Shown here piece by piece: positions 27,935 to 34,872 of a DNA stretch of 64,000 bases (its first letter is position 1; each line of letters starts with the position of its first letter). The DNA comes from Eledone cirrhosa (taxonomy: Eukaryota), in the NCBI GenBank assembly GCA_964016885.1, contig CAXHJY010000796.1, positions 8,130 to 72,129 of the forward strand. Reading direction: 5' to 3'. Below the pieces are notes generated by a model. The model saw nothing but the letters and a program-made list of their open reading frames with translations, searched no databases and had not been told where the DNA came from. Both the position numbers and the translations under genes were made by a program.

Positions 27935-28260
27935 GTAGTTAAATAATGTTCTTTTCAGTTTTATTGTTCAATTAAATCAATATTTCGGAGATATAGAATC
28001 AAATCAATTAAAATCTAAGATATTTGTTCAGCATATATCCTTATGATGTTGTGATTGAATATGCAAAGTACATAAAGGTACCTAGTGCTATCTTTGATAC
28101 CAACTTGCCGCAAACCGCCCCAAGCCGCTCAAAACCGCCTTTGCTTCTGTGAAACAAAGCCACGTATTGTAAAAGGTTTCTATTAAAATGAAATATAAAC
28201 AGCTTCGTATTATATGAAACCACGTTTTATATAACAGTTATGTTACATATAACATTATAA

Positions 28261-28811
28261 TAATTGTTTCTGCTTTTGGCGCAAGGCCAGCAATTATAAC
28301 AGTACATTACTGGTACTTTATTTTATCGACCCCGTAAGGATGAAAGGCAAAGTTAACCTCAGCGAGATTTGAACTCACATCGTAAAGAGATGTAACTACG
28401 CTGGAAAGCATGTCTGACCCCTTACCAATACTGCCAATATAATAATGAAATAAATAATAATTGTTTCTACTTTTGGCACAAGGCCAGCATATTACCAGTG
28501 TATTACTGGTACTTTATTTTATCGACCCCCGTAAGCATGAAAGGCAAAGTTAACCTCGGCGGGATTTGAACTCAGAATTGCAAGGGCCGTAACTCTATGC
28601 GTCAAAGCATGGCGTAATAATTGTTTCTACTTTTGGCACAAGGCCAGCAATTATCCCAGTGTATTACTGGTACTTTATTTTATCGACCCCCGTAAGGTTG
28701 AAAGGCAAAGTTAACCTCAGCGGGATTTGAACTCAGACCTTAAAGTGCCGTAACTCTTTGCTGCAAAGCATGGCGTCCGACCCTCCGCCGATACTGCCAA
28801 TCCACCGCCCT
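28261..28811 (-). mobile_element. Head-to-tail trimer of OK-like SINEs
   Basis: Copies at 28261-28437, 28457-28614, 28616-28811. Confidence 0.9.
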
Positions 28812-29400: not shown

Positions 29401-29887
29401 TCACTCCCCATAAAAGTCGACACGACATTAGAAAGCTAGGGACCATAAATTACGCGAGGACAAACGATTTGCAAGCACGGCGGAAAAATATAACACATTT
29501 TAAAGATTTGCACACTTACATTTACGACAGACAGAAAAAAAAACAGAGCCGCTACATAGTTACCTGGTTTGCTAGAAAAACCAGTCAAATCTCATTCACA
29601 TAACAAATTTGAAAGGTTACATGTCTGATCATCGTTCGATAGGTTTTCCCCCATATTTTAAAGAGTGACGAATAGTGCAGTTTATAACAGTGATCGCCTC
29701 CCGATTTACATTGCGTTTCTCCATATTATATTTATACATACATACACACACACACGCACATATATATATATATACGTGATATCATACTCTGCTCTACGAA
29801 AGCATTGAGTGCTCATACGGCTTACCCCATACGGACGCTTTAAGCATCCAACACCAATTATATATATACATATATTATATTATATAA

Positions 29888-30080
29888 GGGGCGGTGAATT
29901 GGCAGTATCGGTAGAGGGTCGGACGCCATGCTTTGACGCATAGAGTTACGGCCCTTGCCATTCTGAGTTCAAATCCCGCCGAGGTTAACTTTGCCTTTCA
30001 TCCTTACGGGGTCGATAAAATAAAGTACCAGTAATGTACTGGGTTATTTGCTGGCCTTGTGCCAATAGTAGAAACAATTA
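29888..30080 (+). mobile_element. Full-length OK-like tRNA-derived SINE
   Basis: ggcggtgaattggcagtatcgg (A box)...gagttcaaatccc (B box)...gtagaaacaatta. Confidence 0.9.
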
Positions 30081-30098
30081 TATTATATATATATATAT

Positions 30099-30160
30099 AG
30101 TAATAATATAAATTTCAAGACTAAAATCCAAGGAGGGCTCGATAAGGATAAATACATACA
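30099..30160. mobile_element. Family E terminal fragment abutting (TA)n
   Basis: agtaataatataaatttcaagactaaaatccaaggagggctcgataaggataaata; also 62371-62426 and reverse at ~40075-40105. Confidence 0.75.
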
Positions 30161-30236: not shown

Positions 30237-30365
30237 ACCAAATAAATCTATATATTTTTTAAAAAATAATACTCCAGTTGCATTTTCGATTTCATCTCTT
30301 TTTCTTTATACTTTCACTCGTGTAGGACACCTCGGTTATTTTTCATTTTGTAAAAAAAACCTCAC

Positions 30366-30443
<78 letters not shown>

Positions 30444-30508
30444 CACTTTCTAATATATATATATATATATACCTCACTTTCTAATATATATATATATATA
30501 TACCTCAC

Positions 30509-30623
<115 letters not shown>

Positions 30624-30637
30624 TCTCTAGCTGTGTC

Positions 30638-30726
30638 ATTCTCGATAAAAGCACTGGATATGTAGTCCTGAAGATTTCTAACAAGAATGAAACGCGTAGA
30701 TTACTTCCCTTGCTTTTATCGAGAAT
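30638..30726 (+). ncRNA. Type I hammerhead ribozyme, copy 1 (predicted cleavage 30698/30699)
   Basis: gtagtc CTGAAGA t-ttct-aaca-agaa-t GAAAC gc GTA gattac; helix I extended by perfect 16-bp attctcgataaaagca/tgcttttatcgagaat. Confidence 0.9.
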
Positions 30727-30947
30727 CTAATTGTAATACGTGACGTATTCTATTCTATAGCGATTAGGTCTTCAAAATGTTTATTATAAACATACAGAAT
30801 ATTTTCGAATATTCTATGTCTATATTCACATATATATCGCTATTTCAGAGCATTTATTCCAATTTCTAATTTCTGCCGGACCGGCAACCGCTCTTTCAAA
30901 CCAGTTCCTGTACACAGCTAAGTATTCTATAAGTCTCTAGCTGTGTC

Positions 30948-31036
30948 ATTCTCGATAAAAGCACTGGATATGTAGTCCTGAAGATTTCTAACAAGAATGA
31001 AACGCGTAGATTACTTCCCTTGCTTTTATCGAGAAT
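30948..31036 (+). ncRNA. Type I hammerhead ribozyme, copy 2 (predicted cleavage 31008/31009)
   Basis: Same sequence as copy 1, 310 bp downstream. Confidence 0.9.
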
Positions 31037-31604
31037 CTAATTGTAATACGTGACGTATTCTATTCTATAGCGATTAGGTCTTCAAAATGTTTATTATAAA
31101 CATACAGAATATTTTCGAATATTCTATGTCTATATTCACATATATATCGCTATTTCAGAGCATTTATTCCAATTTATATATATATATATATATATATACA
31201 TATATATGGAGTGGGGACCGTGTGTGTGTAAGTGTGTGCTTGTGTACATGTGTGTGTGTGTACATGTGTGTGTGTGTGTGTGTGTTTGTGTGTGTGTGCA
31301 CGAAAAGAAATATTTATCAATCGTAATAATGACTATTTTCTATAGGTTAATTTGTAGCGTGTTAATTTTCAATTGTTGACAATATACAAGGTGAATATTG
31401 AACTTCAATCAAATCAATGGATTATAAATATATTCTTTTTCTCTTTATTTACGAAGGACGGAGGTGCTTTAGCTGAGAAGTGAGAAATCGATATTGAATA
31501 TATATTCATAATGGGATAAACAACTAAAATGATTAACCATAGTGTACAATTTCGAGATAAACTTTGCTCTCTTCTCTCAGGCTTACTCTTTCTCTTCCCT
31601 TCTA

Positions 31605-34555: not shown

Positions 34556-34872
<317 letters not shown>

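Follow-up and report, generated by a model that had tools for sequence, protein, structure and literature searches.

The 310-bp repeat unit at positions 30622 to 31175 of the window, the 64,000-nucleotide stretch of Eledone cirrhosa DNA analysed here, is very probably a young non-LTR retrozyme. Read from the sequences of its copies, the whole chain of events behind it is judged probable rather than assured: a retrozyme is copied by the enzyme of a Penelope-like element (PLE), and each insertion derives from one monomer, most likely a circle.

The insertion lies on the plus strand (TRF: period 310, 1.8 units, 100% match); its first base corresponds to unit position 230-233 and its last to 167. 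It sits in a (TA)n target, recognized from the sequence and by repeat finding at 30515 to 30621 on the left and 31176 to 31207 on the right. TATA at 30618-30621 may belong to either insertion or target, and because (TA)n flanks both sides of insertions, a target-site duplication is not readable. Directly left of the insertion, at 30360-30514, there are four occurrences of CCTCACTTTCTAA with (TA)n behind it, a duplicated edge of the target microsatellite. The unit is non-coding with a GC content of 34%. Two GAAACGCGTA ends, at 30698 and 31008, delimit exactly the span 30699-31008 that the first-pass annotation had proposed as the cleavage-to-cleavage monomer, that is, the predicted RNA unit and candidate circle. 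Copies identical to this monomer are present on at least 6 large contigs.

The unit carries a type I hammerhead ribozyme, assigned by a manual fit to the hammerhead consensus (CUGANGA, GAAA, GUA, stems I to III). Copy 1 occupies 30662-30704, with a predicted cut after 30698 (GUA), and copy 2 occupies 30972-31014, with a predicted cut after 31008, both on the plus strand. In copy 1, a stem I of 6 bp with open ends (30662-30667/30699-30704) is joined to CUGAAGA (30668-30674), a U-U plus a 4-bp stem II (30675-30688), and GAAAC (30689-30693). Helix III is the palindromic ACGCGU; since a loop cannot be closed by two nucleotides, it must consist of one pair beneath a palindromic tetraloop. It resembles that of the axolotl HHR_Amex1, a one-pair form reported to cut efficiently only as a dimer (PMC7229834), and the U-U at the base of helix II is found in the axolotl HHR_Amex2 (PMC7229834). 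Thus, two weaknesses described separately in the available part of that source are combined here in one ribozyme. Rfam gave no match for the ribozyme at the gathering threshold and only 3 chance matches at E<=5, and the insert 30622-31175 contains no antisense ribozyme motif or minus-strand core. In the predicted circle, stem II has a probability of 0.16, being mostly displaced by pairing of UUUC with the conserved GAAA, and the hammerhead-compatible fold costs 5.6 kcal/mol; stem I has a pair probability of 0.96 and places the 5' end beside the core. By analogy, cleavage would need two hammerheads, so that multimers would be cut and a circle with a single ribozyme should be rather stable.

Six further pairings had been named within the monomer, and all are perfect reverse complements on the plus strand. 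A 16-bp stem, whose 5' arm (30711-30726) is the exact reverse complement of its 3' arm (30948-30963), extends stem I and has a mean pair probability of 0.95 in the circle. The other five, with their pair probabilities, are a 6-bp hairpin at 30735-30749 (0.89), an 8-bp stem at 30757-30764/30836-30843 (0.57) around an 8-bp UUCG hairpin at 30796-30815 (0.89), a 5-bp GC hairpin at 30874-30886 (0.93), and a 9-bp stem at 30912-30946 (0.98). The prediction that the monomer folds better than shuffled sequences was borne out both for the linear molecule (MFE -72.5 vs -52.5 +/- 3.8, z -5.2, 0/100 shuffles) and for the circle (-67.8 kcal/mol, z -4.6, 0/200 shuffles). As background, 1/33 non-repetitive 310-nt windows reached z <= -4, and that one is itself another hammerhead-like palindrome. 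The minus strand of the monomer folds alike (z -4.7), as expected because the stems are Watson-Crick. In the uncut precursor, the 89-nt hammerhead domain with its 16-bp stem can fold locally as a hairpin and reaches z -7.4, and the interior alone (unit positions 29-249) gives z -2.5 (1/150 shuffles); the fold signal comes mostly from the extended stem I of the hammerhead. The 16-bp stem had been thought to bring the two cut ends together. However, it stops 12 nt from the 5' end of the monomer and 45 nt from the 3' end, and the ends are instead held by stem I (30699-30704 with 30972-30977). Furthermore, the same stem pairs equally well in the linear precursor (30638-30653 with 30711-30726), and thus the fold alone is no proof of a circle; the genomic copies are more informative on this point.

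The family is dispersed through the 3.0 Gb genome in high copy number and has no LTR layout. Hammerhead cores number about 17,000 (the free position is U in 12,727 and some other base in 4,453), with 0 matches for reversed-pattern controls, and exact long ends joined to (AT)n occur 1,226 times. At 0.43 single-unit substitutions per kb, the family is very young. The 137 loci analysed comprise 38 picked by identity to the monomer among the matches listed, 13 taken from the first core matches listed, 4 family members among 20 loci of another set of core matches, and 82 drawn from the first 100 of the 1,226 long ends; the other 55 were not end-selected. Most insertions have two arms arranged head to head. 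This is so at 44 of the 55 loci that were not end-selected (42 readable, 2 with a gap or edge), and all 42 readable ones pair one short-end arm with one long-end arm. Among the 82 end-selected loci, the same asymmetry is seen in 51 of 52 readable ones, 12 are edge-cut, and 18 are single-armed or incomplete. Short arms stop at unit position 118-140 (true end about 127-132, ambiguous to 139) and long arms at 156-174 (true end about 163-167), so the two ends lie about 35 nt apart.

Placed on the window by arm-end statistics of the genomic copies, this interval between short-arm and long-arm ends is a Penelope-type tail of about 35 nt at 30829-30863, and a second copy of it at 31139-31173 terminates the insertion. 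The window insertion is a long-end arm alone, a minority form in the family. Its 3' end would correspond to a fixed start site of reverse transcription, a point missed in the first-pass annotation. The 5' ends of arms are spread over the whole unit (31/236 in the first tenth), and the 236 ends show no pile-up at the predicted cut. Complete arms range from 0.2 to 19.3 units with a median of 3.0, as a single continuum, and 199 of 223 are longer than one unit. All 108 of 108 arm junctions are distinct, mostly with 0-3 bases of overlap. One locus (L313, G000:C1:339.147 Mb) belongs to an older 312-bp sub-family, about 95% identical, with an identical two-armed layout. The genome also contains a macrosatellite (L167-L171, G000:C14 25.02-25.32 Mb) in which same-strand retrozyme pieces are interleaved with (TA)n at a spacing of several kb.

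PLEs are marked by a 5'-truncated copy in inverted orientation, by a tail of 30-40 bp at one end only, and by (TA)n or AT-rich targets (PMC8557442). For an anole PLE, the tail is the distance between two internal starts of reverse transcription, and both DNA strands are cut and extended (PMC11167929). The retrozyme family shares with these elements, as described in the available parts of both sources, the 5'-truncated inverted copy, the 30-40-bp tail on one end, the (TA)n target, and the two internal starts. It differs from PLEs in having no coding capacity and in arms made of many copies of a short unit. Two PLE families of this genome were compared with it, out of more than 20,000 PLE candidates. 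Family 1 is young, with many near-identical intact frames of 784 aa (RVT_1, E 3e-7; GIY-YIG, E 2e-6) and a CX4CxxC motif ahead of the nuclease, as in Neptune and Nematis (PMC8557442). Its anatomy is the same as that of the retrozyme: an (AT)n target, inverted arms, and on one arm a tail of 36-41 nt, which in this case is the element's own 5' start. Family 1 also forms full tandem copies in which the 3' end is joined to the 5' start (L271 2402-6058; L273), and the two copies scanned contain no hammerhead core. Family 2 (L285-L309) has frames of up to about 900 aa and a minimal hammerhead about 400 bp past the stop codon.

The 310-bp monomer has no significant sequence similarity to either of these two families. 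Comparison of the insert by blastn with 14 loci of family 1 found only a nested retrozyme insertion, and with 25 loci of family 2 only AT-rich low-complexity matches. A CCAAT|(AT)n end common to family 1 and the retrozyme was discounted as evidence for a partner, being the short end in the former and the long end in the latter. The class of enzyme behind the retrozyme copies, as distinct from any one family, is well supported as Penelope-type, and mobilization of the retrozyme by a PLE enzyme is considered highly likely.

Other repeats lie in the same window. A palindrome of about 130 bp at 34700-34870 has a hammerhead-like core on the minus strand (fold z -9.7) and 2,102 first-look candidates in the genome; relatives with a GAAACAGGUC core are found among 133 matches. 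It is likely the inverted end of another PLE-derived family. A fragment of another repeat at 30096-30158 is 94% identical over 64 nt to L303 and, by eye, matches the end of a second hammerhead-bearing palindrome (L175 4600-4820). Several copies of a dispersed repeat of about 200 bp, in both orientations, occupy 28258-28800 and 29880-30097; this repeat is presumably SINE-like with a tRNA-type head.

The sequences of units within arrays bear on the nature of the template. Among 117 arrays with at least 2 full units (727 units), arrays are internally uniform, and 33 array-wide haplotypes were found. The majority haplotype is equal in both arms at 74 of 80 loci, the 6 mismatches all falling in arms of one or two units. 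Three variants that were private within the sample were counted genome-wide. One, 292A>T, had to be set aside as a private variant, because genome-wide it marks a sub-family with 231 matches. The second, 119T>G, runs through whole arrays at two loci, with 18 and 10 matches, and occurs in one unrelated single unit on C3, which was rejected as a donor because its background is different; for its 10.7-unit arm there is no donor of equal length except itself. The third, 98A>T, is array-wide in both arms at 3 loci, on a different background at each. Thus, two young haplotypes are each confined to one locus, where both arms carry them. Such arrays are not copies of a donor array in this assembly. 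Recurrent single-unit variants never share a background (0/8). These patterns fit well with the idea that each insertion passed through one monomer. Read on the ribozyme strand, the single-unit substitutions of the 117 arrays include 20 T>C and 6 A>G (p=0.03, uncorrected), a strand bias that would fit reverse-transcription errors.

Array-wide and locus-unique haplotypes would be accounted for equally well if an RNA of 1-2 units were copied as a short insertion and the arms then grew by unequal crossing-over or slippage, with no rolling. Local growth of this kind is preferred by the authors of 10.64898/2026.07.22.740005 in their Discussion, as far as the available part of that source goes. DNA-level duplication does occur, as indicated by variants repeated in 2-3 units in 7/117 arrays and by array L205, one arm of which combines 10 units carrying one haplotype with 2 carrying a second (from either a nested insertion or a template switch). 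Variants recurring at 2-, 3-, 4-, and 6-unit spacing (L055, L054, L047, L058) and the macrosatellite on C14 also point this way. However, those 7 arrays stand against 97 single-unit substitution events, and the older arrays L166 and L313 are star-like, their units differing mostly by private changes. In addition, arm lengths range without a break from 0.2 to 19 units, and with so many complete arms longer than one unit, copying must have run past the cleavage site already in the seed. Growth by local amplification is rated unlikely.

A second alternative dispenses with cleavage: an uncut, linear, multimeric donor transcript would be the template, and the ribozyme and fold would matter little for copying. 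The anole PLE copies mainly unprocessed RNA, hammerhead cleavage being dispensable in vitro (PMC11167929), and helices II and III are weak in the present ribozyme. Uniform donor arrays would give uniform daughters, and sub-families such as that of 292A>T fit shared donors. Yet each of the two young haplotypes fills both arms completely at one locus and is found nowhere else (donors could be missing from the assembly), and the long 119T>G arm matches no donor but itself. Neither a junction nor a single-unit variant is inherited between loci, and the catalytic core has 0 changes among the 33 array-wide variants. A linear multimer is regarded as quite improbable.

The monomer bottleneck is also compatible with a cut linear monomer that is held shut by stem I, the enzyme jumping the nick on each lap. 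Stem I would keep the 5' end next to the core, and PLE enzymes do make tandem copies of themselves (L273). Such a non-covalent circle nevertheless seems very unlikely, given that 5' ends do not pile up at the cut and that junction scars are absent from the units inspected, apart from one 1G>T and one unit changed at positions 2 and 4. Moreover, circles predominate in the coral, mussel, and axolotl systems (PMC7229834). The copies are best accounted for by rolling reverse transcription around a circle. The first-pass annotation had proposed a fold suited to such a circle, with rolling copying as the explanation of the 1.8-mer. A repeatedly copied monomer template does fit the copies; the main stem, however, forms in the linear precursor too, and 1.8 units is simply one value among arm lengths that vary continuously.

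Selection on the RNA fold can be examined by comparing two classes of variants. Array-wide variants have passed an RNA stage, whereas single-unit variants, which are later DNA mutations or errors of copying or assembly, have not. With variants polarised against the copy at 30622-31175, and bearing in mind that they are not independent draws, 2/33 array-wide variants break a pair or the core in the six stems and ribozyme, compared with 32/84 single-unit variants (p=0.0005). Both array-wide breaks are in terminal pairs, one in the 8-bp stem around the UUCG hairpin and one in the hairpin itself; no array-wide variants were seen in the 6-bp hairpin. The difference is also found in arrays of 3 or more units only (p=0.0016), outside the ribozyme (2/24 vs 25/72, p=0.017), and when all MFE pairs and four further variants are included (8/37 vs 41/83, p=0.005). 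A cost above 1.5 kcal/mol is imposed by 0/33 array-wide and 23/84 single-unit variants. The contrast loses significance when only the five interior stems are counted (2/25 vs 16/61, p=0.08), and likewise for the interior with all MFE pairs (p=0.33).

Of the array-wide variants within stems (n=10), 8 keep the pair, 7 of them as A>G opposite U. In the 16-bp stem, all three array-wide variants are retained as G-U and 9 single-unit variants break pairing; in the 9-bp stem, the corresponding numbers are 2/2 and 4. These results also bear on the possibility that the stems do not act at the RNA level, being chance or DNA-level palindromes, a reading that draws on the equally good fold of the minus strand and on the modest z of the interior. 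Read on the minus strand, 8 of the same 10 in-stem variants would break pairs. Array-wide stem variants are thus G-U pairs on the plus strand and mismatches on the minus strand or in DNA, and the hammerhead core is intact in thousands of copies. For the hammerhead domain and for the stems of 16 and 9 bp, the palindrome reading is already largely refuted; overall it is considered extremely improbable.

The earlier suggestion of selection at the RNA level consequently stands for the hammerhead domain together with its 16-bp extension and the 9-bp stem, and falls short of significance for the five interior stems taken alone. Support for selection on RNA structure is firm for stem I, the 16-bp stem, and the 9-bp stem, whereas the remaining four stems have thin support. 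Covariation among genomic copies, offered as a check on the fold, did not materialize: two-sided compensatory change was not found in the 117 arrays, the family being too young. Real covariation would best be sought in older copies of the L313 type. At unit positions 20, 259, 260, and 276, A>G has appeared repeatedly on several backgrounds, which may reflect editing, recombination, or tolerance. ADAR was considered as the cause of A>G and set aside, as its effect is inseparable from selection for G-U; outside the defined stems, array-wide A>G equals T>C (4 vs 4).

Together, these observations suggest the following mechanism. Tandem 310-bp copies are likely transcribed, and the transcripts are predicted to be cut into monomers by their own hammerheads. 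The monomers would probably be ligated into circles by a host RtcB-type ligase, a reaction demonstrated in vitro for axolotl and mussel (PMC7229834). By analogy with the anole PLE (PMC11167929), the GIY-YIG nuclease of a PLE would nick both strands of AT-rich DNA, and each DNA 3' end would prime at one of two internal sites on the RNA. How many times each arm then runs around the RNA would be left to chance, and short microhomology would join the two cDNAs. At 30622-31175, the long-end arm alone would have been kept. Weighing against the chain are the stem II probability of 0.16, the failure of Rfam to see the ribozyme, and the lack of two-sided compensation; in addition, only 1/9 Xenopus retrozyme dimers were cleaved in vitro (10.64898/2026.07.22.740005). 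A more ambitious version, put forward tentatively and thought rather unlikely, is that a PLE enzyme, working from the two ends of a DNA break, primes at two fixed sites on a covalent 310-nt circle and rolls around it, such that each insertion is a clonal record of one RNA, including A-to-I edits at positions 20, 259, 260, and 276. The genome would then preserve a history of how a circular RNA population evolved while its fold was under selection.

Contigs from sequencing runs were also compared with 30625-31170, and these contigs say nothing on expression. Runs X2, X3, and X6 each gave one 340-nt contig (depth 10-26, 1-2 differences), 340 nt being 310 + 30, the length of a closed cycle; the organism labels of these runs differ from that of X1. 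In X1, one low-depth contig omits 45 bases (region 30698-30744), and the gap begins right at the predicted cut site.

In itself, the element is an unexceptional representative of a class already described. With the non-LTR retrozymes of metazoans (coral, mussel, axolotl; PMC7229834; 10.64898/2026.07.22.740005) it shares a non-coding tandem unit of 150-450 bp, one type I hammerhead per unit, a GC content below 50%, thousands of copies, and a self-paired predicted circle. It differs from those described in the available parts of these sources in its head-to-head two-armed insertions, its fixed tail of about 35 nt, and its strict (TA)n targeting. The Eledone cirrhosa family is also distinguished by being very young.

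Small branched RNAs of similar size with a hammerhead are also characteristic of the hammerhead viroids. Unlike viroids, the 310-bp element is genome-encoded, in thousands of DNA copies, with no antisense ribozyme in the insert. The label "viroid-like" given to it at first is therefore an overstatement, the more so as elements of this kind have already been described as non-LTR retrozymes. Plant LTR retrozymes provide another small branched hammerhead RNA of similar size (PMC7229834). The present ribozyme differs from those of hammerhead viroids and plant LTR retrozymes in being type I rather than type III and in not being blocked by a complementary strand, and the element has no LTR, PBS, or PPT. 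Among the papers listed by literature searches, none described a cephalopod retrozyme or two-armed retrozyme insertions, although the supplements of PMC7229834 and 10.64898/2026.07.22.740005 may bear on this; the available part of PMC13282606 does not mention ribozymes. Relative to that literature, as far as it was accessible, the two-armed anatomy and the monomer bottleneck appear to be new.

For animal retrozymes, the copying enzyme and the copying of circles have so far been proposals rather than results in the sources available. This young family shows the footprints of the process directly. Its Penelope tail and inverted arms name the class of enzyme, and the two start sites on the RNA can be placed within a few bases. 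Its single-unit variants provide a built-in neutral control for selection on the fold of a circular RNA. Finally, because an intact young PLE is present in the same genome, circle-templated reverse transcription is directly testable in vitro.
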